Source: Escherichia coli O157:H7
GTDB taxonomy: Bacteria > Pseudomonadota > Gammaproteobacteria > Enterobacterales > Enterobacteriaceae
Reading direction: 5' to 3' (one strand)
Assembly (NCBI RefSeq): GCF_013167455.1
Contig: NZ_CP038328.1
DNA length: 64,000 bases
The translations under genes and the position numbers were made by a program. Below the pieces are notes generated by a model. That model searched no databases, was not told where the DNA came from, and saw only the letters and a list, made by a program, of their open reading frames with translations. Positions 1-44,962 of this stretch are shown here, one piece after another (the first letter of the stretch is position 1; every line of letters starts with the position of its first letter).

Positions 1-317
1 GTGAGTAAAATATTAAAGGGGTTGCGATAGCAGACCCATAAATGTACCCACCACGGCGACGGTTGTTGTGCGGGTAATTTATTTTCACCATGTTGTTCGC
101 GGGCAGATTCCACTTCCGCCTGATTTAACCCTTCCGGATGGGTGTCGAACGTTTTCCACAATTCTTCTTCGGGCATCACCGCCATTTTCAGGCAATGCGC
201 ACTTAAGGACGGCGGGACCACCGTATTCACTGTCTGCTGCGCGCCAGGCAATGGATCACGATGAACCAGACGGGAAGGTAAATGGCGAATGAGCCGGGTA
301 AAAATTTCTTTAAACAT
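1..317 (-). CDS. mgtA: Mg2+-importing P-type ATPase MgtA, N-terminal ~105 codons (rest of gene lies beyond window start)
   Basis: Reverse-strand translation from ATG at ~315-317 reads MFKEIFTRLIRHLPSRLVHRDPLPGAQQTVNTVV..., which I recognise as the MgtA N-terminus; open to position 1, so absent from ORF track. Confidence 0.9.
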   Translation of the reverse strand, partial: MFKEIFTRLIRHLPSRLVHRDPLPGAQQTVNTVVPPSLSAHCLKMAVMPEEELWKTFDTHPEGLNQAEVESAREQHGENKLPAQQPSPWWVHLWVCYRNPFNILL

Positions 318-580
318 AAGGAGTCCCTCCGCACTGTCTGAAACAGTACAGAAATGTCTTCAGGCGTGGCGAAGCCTTACCTGAAGGTAATAAAGCTGAG
401 CAGGGACGTTAAAACGTCACGGCCTTACGCATCCGGTAACGCCGTGAAAAGACGGGCTTACCGGAAAAGTTTTAATCTCCGTCGAGGGAGAGGCGTGGGA
501 TCAGGTTCCATATAACCTCCGGTAAGTGAAAAAAGCGCCGCAAATAATAAGGAGAATCCAATAATATTCGTAGCATCTAT
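318..580 (-). promoter_or_regulatory. mgtA 5' leader (long regulatory leader, Mg2+/proline-responsive) containing mgtL
   Basis: ~265 nt between predicted PhoP-dependent promoter and mgtA ATG; contains proline-rich leader ORF; fits known mgtA leader architecture. Confidence 0.7.
458..511 (-). CDS. mgtL: mgtA leader peptide MgtL, 17 aa ([17 protein letters not shown])
   Basis: Last 17 codons of ORF-track entry 458..799(-) start at ATG and encode the proline-rich MgtL peptide; the rest of that 113-aa ORF is a spurious upstream extension overlapping treR. Confidence 0.8.
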
Positions 581-586
581 GGCGAT

Positions 587-621
587 ATAATACCTGCTGG
601 CAACTAAACCAACGATAAACC
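587..621 (-). promoter_or_regulatory. PhoP-dependent mgtA promoter: PhoP box GGTTTA-N5-GGTTTA plus -10 TATTAT
   Basis: Reverse strand reads GGTTTATCGTTGGTTTAG at ~604-621 (direct hexamer repeat, 5-nt spacer) with TATTAT ~11 bp downstream at ~587-592. Confidence 0.65.
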
Positions 622-695
622 AGACTTTACCCATTGCTGAATGCACGGGTAAAGTTAGGCTCAAATAATTAAACAACACGTTACAGGACAACAGG

Positions 696-1643
696 ATGCA
701 AAATCGGCTGACCATCAAAGACATCGCGCGCTTAAGCGGCGTGGGGAAATCTACAGTTTCCCGGGTGCTGAATAACGAAAGCGGCGTGAGCCAGCGCACC
801 CGCGAGCGTGTTGAAGCAGTGATGAATCAGCATGGATTTTCCCCTTCCCGTTCTGCGCGCGCTATGCGTGGGCAAAGCGATAAAGTGGTCGCCATCATTG
901 TTACCCGTCTGGATTCGTTGTCAGAAAATCTCGCCGTTCAAACCATGCTGCCAGCGTTCTATGAACAAGGTTACGACCCAATCATGATGGAAAGTCAGTT
1001 TTCCCCGCAATTAGTTGCCGAACATTTGGGGGTGCTGAAACGGCGTAATATCGACGGCGTAGTGCTGTTCGGTTTTACTGGCATAACAGAAGAAATGTTA
1101 GCCCACTGGCAGTCATCGCTGGTTCTGCTGGCGCGTGACGCAAAAGGCTTTGCTTCGGTCTGTTATGACGACGAAGGGGCAATCAAGATCCTGATGCAAC
1201 GGCTGTATGACCAGGGGCATCGTAATATCAGTTATCTCGGCGTGCCGCACAGTGACGTGACAACCGGTAAGCGACGTCACGAAGCCTACCTGGCGTTCTG
1301 CAAAGCGCATAAACTGCATCCCGTTGCCGCCCTGCCAGGGCTTGCTATGAAGCAAGGCTATGAGAACGTAGCAAAAGTGATTACGCCTGAAACTACCGCC
1401 TTACTGTGCGCAACCGACACGCTGGCACTTGGCGCAAGTAAATACCTGCAAGAGCAACGCATCGACACCTTGCAACTGGCGAGCGTCGGTAATACGCCGT
1501 TAATGAAATTCCTTCATCCGGAGATCGTCACCGTAGATCCTGGTTACGCCGAAGCTGGACGCCAGGCGGCTTGCCAGTTGATCGCGCAGGTAACCGGACG
1601 CAGCGAACCGCAACAAATCATCATCCCCGCCAACCTGTCCTGA
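696..1643 (+). CDS. treR: trehalose operon repressor TreR (LacI family), 315 aa
   Basis: Full ORF; N-terminal HTH (TIKDIARLSGVGKSTVSRVLN) and periplasmic-binding-protein-like core; sits upstream of treBC. Confidence 0.97.
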   Translation: MQNRLTIKDIARLSGVGKSTVSRVLNNESGVSQRTRERVEAVMNQHGFSPSRSARAMRGQSDKVVAIIVTRLDSLSENLAVQTMLPAFYEQGYDPIMMESQFSPQLVAEHLGVLKRRNIDGVVLFGFTGITEEMLAHWQSSLVLLARDAKGFASVCYDDEGAIKILMQRLYDQGHRNISYLGVPHSDVTTGKRRHEAYLAFCKAHKLHPVAALPGLAMKQGYENVAKVITPETTALLCATDTLALGASKYLQEQRIDTLQLASVGNTPLMKFLHPEIVTVDPGYAEAGRQAACQLIAQVTGRSEPQQIIIPANLS

Positions 1644-1700
1644 TCGTTTCCTGAACGATAAATTGTGATCTTCGCTGCGTTTCGGGAACGTTCCCGTTTT
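1643..1700. promoter_or_regulatory. treB promoter region with two palindromes (candidate TreR operators) and a CRP-like half site
   Basis: ATCGTTtcctgAACGAT at ~1643-1659 and perfect palindrome CGGGAACGTTCCCG at ~1683-1696; TGTGATcttcgcTGCG at ~1664-1679. Confidence 0.45.
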
Positions 1701-1761
1701 TAAATTTTTCCGCGCAATATATTCTGCAGCCAACCAAAAATGTCATCTGCCATGGGGCTTT

Positions 1762-3183
1762 ATGATGAGCAAAATAAACCAAACGGATATCGATCGGTTG
1801 ATTGAACTGGTCGGCGGGCGCGGCAATATTGCGACGGTGAGCCACTGTATTACTCGCCTGCGCTTTGTCCTCAACCAACCGGCCAATGCCAGACCGAAAG
1901 AAATTGAGCAACTCCCCATGGTGAAAGGCTGTTTCACCAATGCCGGGCAATTTCAGGTGGTGATTGGCACCAACGTGGGTGATTACTATCAAGCACTGAT
2001 AGCGTCAACCGGACAGGCGCAGGTTGATAAAGAGCAGGTAAAAAAAGCCGCCCGGCAGAATATGAAATGGCATGAGCAGTTGATCTCTCATTTCGCAGAG
2101 ATCTTCTTCCCGTTGCTGCCCGCGTTGATTAGCGGCGGTTTGATCCTCGGTTTTCGCAATGTGATCGGCGATTTGCCCATGAGCAACGGTCAAACGCTGG
2201 CGCAAATGTACCCTTCCCTGCAAACGATCTACGATTTTCTGTGGTTGATCGGTGAAGCGATCTTCTTCTACCTGCCGGTCGGGATTTGCTGGTCAGCGGT
2301 GAAAAAAATGGGCGGCACGCCGATCCTTGGTATCGTGCTTGGCGTGACACTGGTTTCCCCCCAACTGATGAACGCTTATCTGCTCGGGCAGCAGCTGCCG
2401 GAAGTGTGGGACTTTGGCATGTTCAGCATCGCCAAAGTGGGCTATCAGGCGCAGGTGATCCCGGCACTGTTAGCCGGGCTGGCGCTGGGCGTTATTGAAA
2501 CTCGCCTTAAACGCATCGTGCCGGATTACCTCTATCTGGTGGTGGTGCCCGTCTGTTCGCTGATCCTCGCGGTGTTCCTCGCCCATGCGCTGATTGGTCC
2601 GTTTGGTCGCATGATTGGCGATGGCGTTGCCTTTGCGGTACGTCACCTGATGACCGGCAGCTTTGCTCCGATTGGCGCGGCATTGTTTGGCTTCCTGTAC
2701 GCCCCGCTGGTGATCACCGGTGTACACCAGACCACGCTTGCTATTGATTTGCAGATGATTCAAAGCATGGGTGGTACGCCAGTGTGGCCGCTGATTGCGC
2801 TGTCGAATATCGCTCAGGGCTCCGCCGTGATAGGCATTATCATTTCCAGCCGCAAGCACAATGAACGCGAGATCTCCGTGCCTGCGGCGATCTCCGCCTG
2901 GCTTGGGGTCACTGAGCCTGCAATGTACGGCATCAACCTGAAATATCGCTTCCCGATGCTGTGCGCGATGATTGGTTCTGGTCTGGCAGGATTGCTATGC
3001 GGCCTGAACGGCGTTATGGCGAATGGCATCGGCGTAGGCGGCCTGCCGGGAATTCTCTCGATTCAACCGAGCTACTGGCAGGTGTTTGCGCTGGCAATGG
3101 CTATCGCCATCATCATCCCGATTGTACTCACCTCGTTTATCTATCAGCGGAAATACCGCCTGGGCACGCTGGACATTGTTTAA
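1762..3183 (+). CDS. treB: PTS trehalose-specific EIIBC component, 473 aa
   Basis: Full ORF, polytopic membrane protein with N-terminal EIIB cysteine motif (TVSHCITRLRF); followed by treC. Confidence 0.97.
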   Translation: MMSKINQTDIDRLIELVGGRGNIATVSHCITRLRFVLNQPANARPKEIEQLPMVKGCFTNAGQFQVVIGTNVGDYYQALIASTGQAQVDKEQVKKAARQNMKWHEQLISHFAEIFFPLLPALISGGLILGFRNVIGDLPMSNGQTLAQMYPSLQTIYDFLWLIGEAIFFYLPVGICWSAVKKMGGTPILGIVLGVTLVSPQLMNAYLLGQQLPEVWDFGMFSIAKVGYQAQVIPALLAGLALGVIETRLKRIVPDYLYLVVVPVCSLILAVFLAHALIGPFGRMIGDGVAFAVRHLMTGSFAPIGAALFGFLYAPLVITGVHQTTLAIDLQMIQSMGGTPVWPLIALSNIAQGSAVIGIIISSRKHNEREISVPAAISAWLGVTEPAMYGINLKYRFPMLCAMIGSGLAGLLCGLNGVMANGIGVGGLPGILSIQPSYWQVFALAMAIAIIIPIVLTSFIYQRKYRLGTLDIV

Positions 3184-3191
3184 TTTTCTTC

Positions 3192-3209
3192 GGGGCGCAA
3201 TTGCGCCCC
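3192..3209. other. perfect 18-bp palindrome GGGGCGCAATTGCGCCCC in treB-treC intercistronic spacer (RNA stem-loop)
   Basis: Sequence is its own reverse complement; lies between treB stop and treC start. Confidence 0.6.
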
Positions 3210-3232
3210 CTCGCATTTGCAGGAATAACGTA

Positions 3233-4888
3233 ATGACTAATCTTCCCCACTGGTGGCAAAACGGCGTTATCTACCAGATTTATCCAAAGAGTTTTCAGGA
3301 CACCACGGGTAGCGGCACCGGCGATTTACGTGGCGTTATCCAACGCCTGGACTATCTGCATAAACTGGGCGTTGATGCCATCTGGCTAACCCCCTTTTAT
3401 GTCTCTCCGCAGGTCGATAACGGTTACGATGTAGCGAACTATACGGCGATTGATCCCACCTACGGCACGCTGGACGATTTTGACGAACTGGTGACGCAGG
3501 CAAAATCGCGCGGGATTCGTATCATTCTCGATATGGTGTTTAACCATACCTCTACCCAACATGCCTGGTTTCGCGAGGCGCTGAACAAAGAAAGCCCTTA
3601 CCGCCAGTTTTATATCTGGCGCGATGGCGAACCAGAAACGCCACCGAACAACTGGCGTTCAAAATTTGGCGGTAGTGCGTGGCGCTGGCATGCGGAAAGC
3701 GAACAGTACTATTTGCATCTCTTTGCACCAGAACAGGCGGATCTCAACTGGGAGAATCCAGCGGTACGCGCAGAGCTGAAAAAAGTCTGTGAGTTCTGGG
3801 CCGATCGTGGGGTCGACGGGTTGCGCCTGGATGTGGTGAATCTGATCTCCAAAGACCCGCGTTTCCCTGATGACCTGGATGGCGACGGGCGTCGCTTCTA
3901 CACCGACGGGCCACGAGCACACGAGTTTTTGCACGAGATGAACCGCGATGTGTTTACGCCACGCGGGTTAATGACCGTAGGTGAAATGTCCTCCACCAGC
4001 CTTGAGCATTGCCAGCGATACGCGGCACTGACAGGCAGTGAATTGTCGATGACCTTTAATTTTCATCACCTGAAGGTCGATTATCCCGGTGGTGAAAAAT
4101 GGACGCTGGCTAAACCTGACTTTGTGGCGTTGAAAACATTGTTCCGCCACTGGCAACAAGGAATGCACAACGTAGCATTGAATGCCTTGTTCTGGTGTAA
4201 CCACGATCAGCCGCGCATTGTTTCTCGCTTTGGTGATGAAGGTGAATACCGCGTGCCTGCGGCAAAAATGCTGGCGATGGTGCTGCATGGCATGCAGGGA
4301 ACGCCGTATATCTACCAGGGCGAAGAGATTGGCATGACCAACCCGCATTTCACGCGCATTACTGACTATCGCGACGTAGAGAGCCTCAATATGTTTGCCG
4401 AGCTGCGCAACGATGGGCGTGATGCCGACGAGTTATTGGCAATCCTCGCCAGTAAATCCCGTGACAACAGCCGCACGCCCATGCAATGGAGCAACGGCGA
4501 TAATGCCGGGTTTACGGCTGGCGAACCGTGGATTGGCCTGGGCGATAACTATCAACAAATCAACGTAGAAGCCGCGCTGGCCGATGAGTCCTCGGTGTTT
4601 TACACCTACCAAAAGTTAATCGCACTGCGTAAGCAGGAAGCCATCCTGACATGGGGCAATTACCAGGATCTGCTGCCAAACAGCCCTGTATTGTGGTGCT
4701 ATCGCCGTGAATGGAAGGGGCAAACCTTGCTGGTCATTGCCAACCTTAGCCGTGAGATCCAACCCTGGCAGCCAGGGCAAATGCGCGGCAACTGGCAGCT
4801 TGTGATGCATAACTACGAAGAAGCCTCACCACAACCCTGTGCCATGACTTTACGGCCTTTTGAGGCTGTCTGGTGGTTACAGAAGTAA
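3233..4888 (+). CDS. treC: trehalose-6-phosphate hydrolase, 551 aa (GH13)
   Basis: ORF-track 3086..4888 starts at an upstream TTG; the real start is the ATG giving MTNLPHWWQNGVIYQIYPKSF; alpha-amylase family motifs present. Confidence 0.95.
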   Translation: MTNLPHWWQNGVIYQIYPKSFQDTTGSGTGDLRGVIQRLDYLHKLGVDAIWLTPFYVSPQVDNGYDVANYTAIDPTYGTLDDFDELVTQAKSRGIRIILDMVFNHTSTQHAWFREALNKESPYRQFYIWRDGEPETPPNNWRSKFGGSAWRWHAESEQYYLHLFAPEQADLNWENPAVRAELKKVCEFWADRGVDGLRLDVVNLISKDPRFPDDLDGDGRRFYTDGPRAHEFLHEMNRDVFTPRGLMTVGEMSSTSLEHCQRYAALTGSELSMTFNFHHLKVDYPGGEKWTLAKPDFVALKTLFRHWQQGMHNVALNALFWCNHDQPRIVSRFGDEGEYRVPAAKMLAMVLHGMQGTPYIYQGEEIGMTNPHFTRITDYRDVESLNMFAELRNDGRDADELLAILASKSRDNSRTPMQWSNGDNAGFTAGEPWIGLGDNYQQINVEAALADESSVFYTYQKLIALRKQEAILTWGNYQDLLPNSPVLWCYRREWKGQTLLVIANLSREIQPWQPGQMRGNWQLVMHNYEEASPQPCAMTLRPFEAVWWLQK

Positions 4889-4900
4889 ATCTTCCCTAAG

Positions 4901-4934
4901 CCCCGGTAATGCCGGTCATTCCGGGGTTTTGTCT
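4901..4934 (+). terminator. rho-independent terminator after treC
   Basis: GC-rich hairpin CCCCGGTAATGCCGGTCATTCCGGGG followed by TTTTGTCTG. Confidence 0.6.
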
Positions 4935-5049
4935 GTCAGCATGTTGTTTTTGTTGATTTTTCAACCAGCAAATTCATTAAAAAATTTACATAACGCTGTA
5001 GCGCCCGTCATCCGTACGCTCTGCTTTTTACTTTGAGCTACATCAAAAA

Positions 5050-7429: not shown

Positions 7430-7600
<171 letters not shown>

Positions 7601-10704: not shown

Positions 10705-10820
10705 GTATGGTTTGCCGGATGCGGTGCACCTGTAGGCCTGATAAGACGCATCAAGCGTCGCATCAGGCACTATGCTCAAATGCCGGATGCGGCGTGAACG
10801 CCTTATCCGGCCTACGCACA
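10705..10820. repeat. REP elements between yjgA and mpl
   Basis: GCCGGATGCGG...CCTTATCCGGCCTAC and GTAGGCCTGATAAGACGC...CGCATCAGGC motifs. Confidence 0.85.
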
Positions 10821-16959: not shown

Positions 16960-17075
16960 AGCGTGCTCCCAGTAGGCATGATAAGACGCGGTAAGCGTCG
17001 CATCAGGCTTCAGTGCACCATCGCCGGATGCGGCGCGAGCGCCTTATCCGGCCTACGAATCGGCATCAGGCATAG
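16960..17075. repeat. intercistronic REP elements between ytfQ and ytfR
   Basis: GTAGGCATGATAAGACGCG...CGCATCAGGC and GCCGGATGCGGCGCGAGCGCCTTATCCGGCCTAC motifs. Confidence 0.85.
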
Positions 17076-26504: not shown

Positions 26505-26612
26505 TTTATGCCGGATGCGGCGTAAACGCCTTGCCAGGCCTACAAAATCGTCCAAATTCAATATATTGCAAGGACTGCGTAGGCCTGATCGGCATAGCGC
26601 ATCAGGCAGTTT
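26505..26612. repeat. REP elements downstream of msrA
   Basis: GCCGGATGCGGCGTAAACGCCTT...GGCCTAC and GTAGGCCTGATCGGCATAGCGCATCAGGC motifs. Confidence 0.8.
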
Positions 26613-26784
26613 TGCATTTTTCAGCTGTCTGAATTTTAACCCTCTGGCGGCTTTACAGTACCTTACGCTATACTAGCCACTGAAAATGCCGGTTCACTTT
26701 CTTCGAATCGGCTTTCAATGTGTATTTCACACAAATTAATCAACTTCCCCTTCCGAGGATCTGGCCTGAAAGGTCGGATAAGAT

Positions 26785-31262: not shown

Positions 31263-31451
31263 TTCTCCACCTCGTCTCTGTGAGCGGTGTTAACTTATTG
31301 TTTTACTTATACCCTATCATTAATGAATGCGCCAACTGTGATAGTGTCATCATTTTCAAAGCGTAAAATTGTGGCATTCTTCACTGTTCTATAAGTAAGA
31401 CGTTTATTCTCCCTTTTCTTTCGTATTCCCGATGATAAAAGGATGTCCCTG

Positions 31452-44240: not shown

Positions 44241-44654
<414 letters not shown>

Positions 44655-44962
44655 TTATTCAGCCTCCTGTCTGGGTCAGCCGAATCCCGGGGAGGCAAGG
44701 AACGTGTTAAAGGTCGGCTGAAAAATGACGCGTTATAGTACTGACATACCCCGCTAAACTCAAGGCCAGCCGACAAATAAATCTCATCTTTCACCAAAGT
44801 GGACTAACACGCTGATTTGAAGTTCATCACACTTCATCATGGTGTTTTTTCGAACAACTGCATCAGAAATGGTCACCATCAACTTCTTTATCATTGATTA
44901 AAATTAAATCAGAAGATCATCACAGAGGAGAGCACACAAAGTCAGCCGTCGAGGAGGTATCT

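Follow-up and report, generated by a model that had tools for sequence, protein, structure and literature searches.

The mgtA promoter and Mg2+-sensing leader, with its 17-codon mgtL, in Escherichia coli O157:H7

The control region of mgtA, which comprises a PhoP box, an Mg2+-sensing leader, and the 17-codon MgtL, is already known and well studied: transcription initiation of this gene for an Mg2+-importing P-type ATPase is controlled by PhoP/PhoQ, and elongation is controlled by the leader RNA and its peptide, which is textbook biology. We analyzed the region in a 64,000-nucleotide (nt) stretch of Escherichia coli O157:H7 DNA (contig NZ_CP038328.1; hereafter, the window), in which the minus strand of positions 318-621 is almost certainly the native E. 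coli mgtA promoter and 5' leader with both levels of control. The nearest described system is the same locus of K-12 MG1655, which has the same neighbors (divergent treR, then treB and treC). An Mg2+-responsive leader located before an Mg2+ transporter gene also occurs in Firmicutes as the M-box (ykoK, Rfam Mg_sensor-I type); unlike the mgtA leader, to which it is unrelated in sequence and structure, it has no leader peptide. No M-box was found in our Rfam E-value scan of window positions 1-5000, which gave RF01056 (Magnesium-II) only.

The mgtA gene of Salmonella enterica, an ortholog in another genus, has a DNase-footprinted PhoP box, TGGTTTATCGTTGGTTTAA, that agrees with the box in the window at 18 of 19 positions, and its 12-nt distance from the box to the -10 hexamer is also the same (PMC3335776). 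Its leader is 264 nt long (PMC3335776), as against approximately 263-264 nt here, and it shares the architecture of stems A and B versus stem C and the position of mgtL. Rho dependence is firm in Salmonella, whereas one E. coli chromatin immunoprecipitation (ChIP) study did not observe it (PMC11552253). The corA leader of E. coli and Salmonella, which contains corL, likewise has mutually exclusive structures, a small upstream open reading frame (ORF) in stem-loop A, and Rho-dependent termination (PMC11552253); however, it belongs to another gene elsewhere in the genome, lacks a PhoP box, has a single Pro in corL, and has no RF01056 match in the window.

Identity of the locus and its PhoP box

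The first 1,000 bases of the window were matched in 5,425 of 5,426 complete E. coli genomes, and several E. coli chromosomes, one of them from an O157:H7 strain, were 100% identical to the window over 1 kb. The genes annotated beneath the 100% matches are treR, mgtL ("mgtA regulatory leader peptide MgtL"), and mgtA ("magnesium-translocating P-type ATPase"). On the plus strand, treR is located at 696-1643 and is followed by two long ORFs where treB and treC are expected. The mgtA ATG lies at 317..315 on the minus strand, with position 318 as the last leader base, and the gene begins with the translation MFKEIFTRLIRHLPSRL..., its frame reading MFKEIFTRLIRHLPSRLVHRDPLPG.... An earlier reading made from the sequence alone (the sequence-only reading) had named the region as that of mgtA and labeled it well-characterized biology. 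The label is correct and the identity is supported by our analysis, in which we found nothing that contradicts it, but the strand had not been given and all of the features are on the minus strand. The interval 318-621 has the final base of the leader as one end and the distal end of the PhoP box as the other. The features needed for the promoter are as follows.

621..605, minus strand: PhoP box, a direct repeat GGTTTA-TCGTT-GGTTTA (GGTTTATCGTTGGTTTA), approximately -41 to -25 relative to the predicted transcription start and thus at the -35 position
592..587, minus strand: candidate -10 hexamer TATTAT, read from the sequence, 12 nt 3' of the PhoP box
318..581, minus strand: mgtA 5' leader of approximately 263-264 nt, with a predicted start at A580 or C581
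1..317, minus strand: 5' coding end of mgtA (codons 1-105; the remainder of the gene lies beyond the left end of the window), from the translation and the RefSeq annotation under a 100% match

Alignment with the MG1655 mgtA upstream region, which had been proposed as a check along with an Rfam scan, covered 441 nt and contained two substitutions, both upstream of the transcript. Position 600 is C in the window and T in MG1655; it lies in the spacer between the PhoP box and the -10 hexamer and is the sole difference inside 318-621. Position 653, in the treR-proximal part of the intergenic region, is T in the window and G in MG1655. The hexamer repeat of the PhoP box, the -10 hexamer, the whole leader, every mgtL codon, and the mgtA start are identical to those of MG1655 (b4702 and b4242).

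A few genomes stood apart in these searches. Only the treR-proximal 120 nt (window 695..576) were matched in E. coli GCU-H1 (NZ_CP178558.1; H20, H50), and since this match ends approximately at the mgtA start site, this strain appears to have an interrupted or deleted mgtA leader. One of the 5,426 genomes had no match at all, and three matches were on records labeled as plasmids.

The PhoP box reported by the sequence-only reading, GGTTTA-N5-GGTTTA, is indeed present and fits the pattern (T/G)GTTTA-N5-(T/G)GTTTA of "architecture I" with no mismatches. In this architecture, a single directly oriented box lies 12 nt before the -10 hexamer and overlaps the -35 position, and PhoP acts as a class II activator, as has been demonstrated for mgtA (Zwir et al. 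2012, PMC3335776); activation of the Salmonella mgtA promoter needs no C-terminal domain of the RNA polymerase alpha subunit (PMC3335776). The box in the window is directly oriented, and the 12-nt spacer GTTGCCAGCAGG (604..593, minus strand) separates it from TATTAT. The same box sequence is listed for Shigella mgtA/treR (PMC5775216). No -35 consensus was present, and a two-hexamer sigma-70 scan of positions 250-760 gave no complete promoter, as expected for a promoter that depends on an activator. The promoter and terminator scan of this interval fits an activator-dependent promoter followed by Rho-type termination, a result that is uninformative on its own. By analogy with published work on identical (K-12 and Shigella) and nearly identical (Salmonella) sequences, phosphorylated PhoP is expected to bind the direct repeat and recruit RNA polymerase in a class II manner when PhoQ senses low periplasmic Mg2+, rendering transcription PhoP-dependent.

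For comparison with other species, a DNA pattern derived from the non-coding part of the element was searched against a genome collection and yielded 47 loci, approximately 21 of which were chance matches in unrelated phyla (approximately 24 had been estimated beforehand) and were dropped. Orthologous leaders were thereby obtained from 26 enterobacterial genomes of Escherichia, Citrobacter, Kosakonia, Leclercia, Enterobacter, Pseudescherichia, and Pseudenterobacter; Salmonella was not retrieved by the DNA pattern. The final alignment contained 25 sequences, namely 24 retrieved leaders and the window. One locus (L034; CP025776.1, Enterobacter sp. EA-1) was left out as a probable error-laden assembly: a 2-nt deletion breaks its mgtL frame and there are indels in its first mgtA codons, which look like assembly errors rather than biology.

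These data leave hardly any room for the view that the hexamer repeat is a chance match in a promoter that does not depend on PhoP. The pattern KGTTTA-N5-KGTTTA has this one match on both strands of the whole window, whereas 0.01 matches are expected from dinucleotide-preserving shuffles; the orientation and spacing agree with those of the footprinted Salmonella promoter; and the box occupies the same position in Escherichia, Leclercia, Pseudescherichia, and Pseudenterobacter, as well as in Citrobacter, where the first half-site is the variant GGTATA.

A 16-nt block, GCAATGGGTAAAGTCT, abuts the PhoP box at window 622-637 (minus strand) and is conserved in Escherichia, Citrobacter, Leclercia, and Kosakonia. 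This block probably belongs to the divergent treR promoter, which overlaps mgtA P1. In Kosakonia and Enterobacter sp. Bisph1, the block stays joined to one GGTTTA half-site, which is followed by an insertion of approximately 40 bp; past the insertion comes another box, TATACGTTTGGTTTA, with a TATGAT hexamer 12 nt downstream of it.

The leader RNA and MgtL

Whole-leader folding gave a free energy of -87.3 kcal/mol (z = -4.27 relative to shuffled sequences), and the Rfam scan placed RF01056 at 526..411 with 125.8 bits, far above the gathering score of 40; the match is not truncated and spans positions 1-115 of the 115 in the model. It is the one Rfam match in the first 5 kb, a result with which a scan of the whole window agrees, and it ends 94 nt 5' of the mgtA ATG. 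All of the following elements are on the minus strand and were located by reading the sequence, by the Rfam structure, by the minimum free energy (MFE) fold, or by the RNAalifold consensus, as indicated.

526..411, minus strand: Mg2+-sensing element, Rfam RF01056 Magnesium-II, stem-loops A and B (125.8 bits, E = 4e-26)
526..457, minus strand: stem-loop A, in which 526..516 pairs with 467..457 (Rfam structure and MFE; -19.7 kcal/mol)
520..516, minus strand: mgtL Shine-Dalgarno sequence GGAGG, 4 nt before the AUG, in the 5' strand of stem A (sequence read)
511..458, minus strand: mgtL, 17 codons plus stop (translation; the RefSeq coding sequence WP_001387276.1 / b4702 is at the same place)
464..433, minus strand: alternative stem C, in which CCGGUAAGCC (464..455) pairs with GGC-G-UUACCGG (443..433; ten pairs, -14.4 kcal/mol)
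456..447, minus strand: pyrimidine-rich linker CCCGUCUUUU between stems A and B (C4 and G1 in 10 nt), putatively part of a Rho utilization (rut) site
446..418, minus strand: stem-loop B (CACGGCGUUACCGGAUGCGUAAGGCCGUG; -15.8 kcal/mol)
417..387, minus strand: C-rich, G-poor stretch after stem B, with a small hairpin GACGUUUUAACGUC and GUCCCUG (C9 and G4 in 31 nt), putatively the second half of the rut site
386..358, minus strand: hairpin D, CUUCAGG...CCUGAAG (RNAalifold consensus, with compensatory changes)
351..329, minus strand: hairpin E, adjoining the 5' side of the mgtA Shine-Dalgarno sequence and including its first two G (MFE)
330..325, minus strand: mgtA Shine-Dalgarno sequence GGAGGG (sequence read; a G-rich block lies 7-9 nt before the ATG in all species)

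Stem-loop A holds mgtL and two small inner hairpins, and its 3' strand consists of the last mgtL codons and the stop codon. Stem C is built from this 3' strand and the 5' half of stem B and is mutually exclusive with both; the evaluated energies were -35.5 kcal/mol for A plus B, -14.4 kcal/mol for C, and -15.8 kcal/mol for B. Stems A, B, and C were all kept in the 24 other enterobacterial species. The Rfam structure was paired in 98.1% of cells across 24 distinct sequences, compared with 34-49% when the partners were slid by 1-3 columns. In the same sequences, 97% of the cells of stem A were paired, and its invariance is as expected under combined RNA and coding constraint; for stem B, 97.7% of cells were paired, and four pairs carried compensatory double changes across species.

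The mgtL gene lies within the leader, as the sequence-only reading had stated, with its 17 codons and stop at 511..458. Its Shine-Dalgarno region, TTACCGGAGG, is invariant in 25 of 25 aligned species, and its UAA (460..458) is located inside CCGGUAAG, the strand common to stems A and C; this layout, with its own Shine-Dalgarno sequence in stem-loop A and its stop in the A/C strand, is kept in 24 of 24 relatives. In MgtL, residues 2 and 4 are acidic, and residues 3, 5, 7, and 9 are Pro. The three consecutive Pro codons that had been described within PLPRRR do not exist, since the Pro codons are never adjacent: in PLPRRR, a Leu codon separates the two Pro codons, and it is Arg that is encoded three times in a row after them (CGA CGG AGA). 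The core M(D/E)PDP(T/A)P(L/H)P is found in 25 of 25 sequences, and the C-terminal half varies, both in its sequence and in the resulting peptide length (14-17 residues). In codons 1-12, the variable positions comprise six third, three first, and two second positions, and codons 1-10 differ from those of the window by 56 synonymous and 24 nonsynonymous changes; this excess of synonymous change lends indirect, comparative support to the translation of mgtL. Translation of E. coli mgtL and its control of mgtA have been published (PMC11282234).

This locus is of value solely as an annotation point: a naive longest-ORF track conceals mgtL in a meaningless frame of 113 amino acids (aa), and the promoter and riboswitch are not visible to an ORF-based reading at all. 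The sequence-only reading had noted that mgtL is hidden in this ORF (458..799, minus strand), of which it forms the last 17 codons in the same frame. The accompanying remark that the ORF track lacks mgtL is true of a naive longest-ORF list but not of RefSeq, which annotates mgtL in E. coli genomes. The 113-aa ORF is the longest minus-strand frame in the mechanical list, and this is what would speak for its being the real gene and the 17-codon reading an artefact. The probability of this is negligible: the ORF begins within treR, which is on the opposite strand, and crosses the promoter and PhoP box; the nearest in-frame stop 5' of the mgtL AUG is 10 to 107 codons away among the 24 relatives, so that the long ORF is an accident of frame, whereas every one of these relatives retains an mgtL of 14-17 codons preceded by its own GGAGG; and RefSeq annotates mgtL only, with no 113-aa gene. 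We rejected the 113-aa ORF as a gene; it is not kept in the 24 other species. A 53-aa ATG ORF at 354-515 on the plus strand, antisense to the mgtA leader and mgtL, has no support as a gene and is most likely a chance frame.

Termination and the sensing of Mg2+

For the window, our own results concern the identity of the locus, the PhoP box with its spacing, the mgtL frame, the match to RF01056, and the helices that exclude one another, including the extent to which these are conserved and covary; PhoP binding and dependence on Mg2+, proline, and Rho come from the literature. In the A/B versus C model, which is described in PMC11552253, stems A and B form at high Mg2+ and stem C forms at low Mg2+; mgtA is repressed when mgtL is translated efficiently and expressed when elongation is poor at the Pro and acidic codons of mgtL. 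The EPDP motif of E. coli MgtL causes intrinsic ribosome destabilization at low Mg2+, and full translation of mgtL keeps a Rho-dependent terminator accessible (PMC11282234).

Applied to the window, this model predicts a leader that may fold in two ways, either as stem-loops A and B or as stem C, in which the 3' strand of A pairs with the 5' strand of B. When cytoplasmic Mg2+ (and proline) is sufficient, ribosomes would reach the mgtL stop and cover the shared strand, which would allow B to form and expose its pyrimidine-rich flanks, and Rho would terminate transcription at approximately leader nt 216-264. At low Mg2+, ribosomes would stall or drop off at the destabilizing EPDP/Pro codons early in mgtL; A could not then close, the shared strand and the 5' half of B would pair as stem C, Rho loading would be hindered, and the polymerase would enter mgtA. 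The Mg2+-dependent change of conformation and the read-through are suggested here by analogy with the published systems.

The switch was modeled by masked folding, in which the RNA was blocked, beginning at the 5' end of stem A and extending to include the ribosome footprint, and the position of the P site was varied. The MFE structure contained stem C for P sites at codons 3, 7, and 9 and stem B for P sites at codons 12 and 17. With the P site at codon 5, stem B still formed via an alternative local pairing, and the thermodynamic model is thus only indicative. Constrained folds of this kind reproduce the published A/B versus C logic as a model.

Two 3' ends mapped by Term-seq in MG1655 fall within the leader. 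The end at 4467576, which is flagged as Rho-dependent and "riboswitch" (PMC7815308 supplement), corresponds to window 366, in the 3' half of hairpin D at approximately leader nt 216 and 49 nt before mgtA. The second end, at 4467490, corresponds to window 452, 6 nt after the mgtL stop and immediately beyond the base of stem A. The flanks of stem B are rich in C and poor in G (C4/G1 in 10 nt and C9/G4 in 31 nt), and they are putative rut sequences by analogy with Salmonella mgtA and corA; the GTCCCTG in the second flank is nearly invariant across species. Attenuation by an intrinsic hairpin and U-tract terminator instead of Rho, as in the trp and his leaders, would be in keeping with a leader peptide set within alternative hairpins, like those of amino acid operon attenuators. 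It is nevertheless very improbable: a simple scan of 250-760 found no intrinsic terminator-like site on either strand, stem B is followed by GACGUUUUAACGUC and no U-tract, and both published work and the Term-seq data assign the 3' end to Rho. The intrinsic-terminator attenuator was rejected on these grounds.

Several points weigh against the mechanism outlined above. When the 28-nt ribosome footprint alone was masked, stem A stayed closed around the masked loop, so that the switch needs the steric assumption that a ribosome in the loop blocks closure of the stem; closure around a 70S ribosome is physically impossible, and for this reason all RNA 5' of the ribosome front was masked in the folds described above. 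The alignment shows no variation in stem A or in the core of stem C, which speaks for conservation and provides no covariation evidence, and part of stem C (the core pairs) was fixed by the search pattern and offers no independent covariation. The transcription start at A580 or C581 is a prediction from the position and spacing of the -10 hexamer and from the length of the Salmonella leader. The ChIP study saw no Rho-dependent termination at E. coli mgtA (ref. 23 of PMC11552253); with the Term-seq end flagged as Rho-dependent, the evidence conflicts. Finally, the route by which Mg2+ is sensed, with either the RNA binding the ion itself or translation of mgtL as the sensor, is debated and not fully understood (PMC11552253).

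With respect to this last point, the leader may sense Mg2+ mainly as a true riboswitch, in which Mg2+ binds the RNA and stabilizes A and B while mgtL translation is secondary, as an input for proline or osmotic signals. The element is classed as a riboswitch aptamer in Rfam, its helices are conserved with covariation in stem B, and Mg2+-dependent folding alone modulated Rho-dependent termination in vitro (ref. 8 of PMC11552253). Newer work in E. coli and Salmonella, however, points to mgtL elongation via the EPDP/Pro codons, bL31, and EttA (PMC11552253, PMC11282234), and the MgtL core is conserved as amino acids with synonymous variation, which would be needless for a pure RNA sensor. We consider the riboswitch explanation possible but the less probable one, and favor sensing through the translation of mgtL. 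The questions of Mg2+ sensing and Rho are not specific to this window, and the window makes no open question more testable.

The 3' leader and other elements of the window

Hairpins D and E lie outside the Rfam model and show compensatory changes among 21 relatives; in hairpin E, four of six consensus pairs carry such changes, in 5-9 sequences. An mgtA-like ORF starts 144-151 nt after the anchor in 20 of the 21 relatives in which it was located. The GUCCCU at 407..402 is complementary to the AGGGAC (328..323) of the mgtA Shine-Dalgarno sequence, and this pairing is present in the whole-leader MFE fold and partly in the RNAalifold consensus, with little independent covariation. The folds raise the unlikely possibility that window 407-323, comprising a helix between GUCCCU and the Shine-Dalgarno sequence (anti-Shine-Dalgarno) with D and E between its strands, adds control beyond A, B, and C. 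If so, the conformation of the leader would also gate the initiation of mgtA translation, rather than Rho-dependent termination alone.

The Kosakonia sacchari group (L007, L040, and L041) has approximately 100 extra nt between hairpin D and mgtA; in L040, mgtA starts approximately 251 nt after the anchor, compared with approximately 147 nt in other species. Because of this insertion, the group was left out of the 3' leader alignment.

No tRNA genes were found in the window. Outside the mgtA region, the following elements scored above the Rfam gathering score.

7436-7506, 10735-10812, and 16975-17053, minus strand: three copies of naRNA4
26544-26586, plus strand: ES036
26666-26723, plus strand: STnc450
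31329-31451, minus strand: ES239 small RNA
44634-44718, minus strand: RpsF leader

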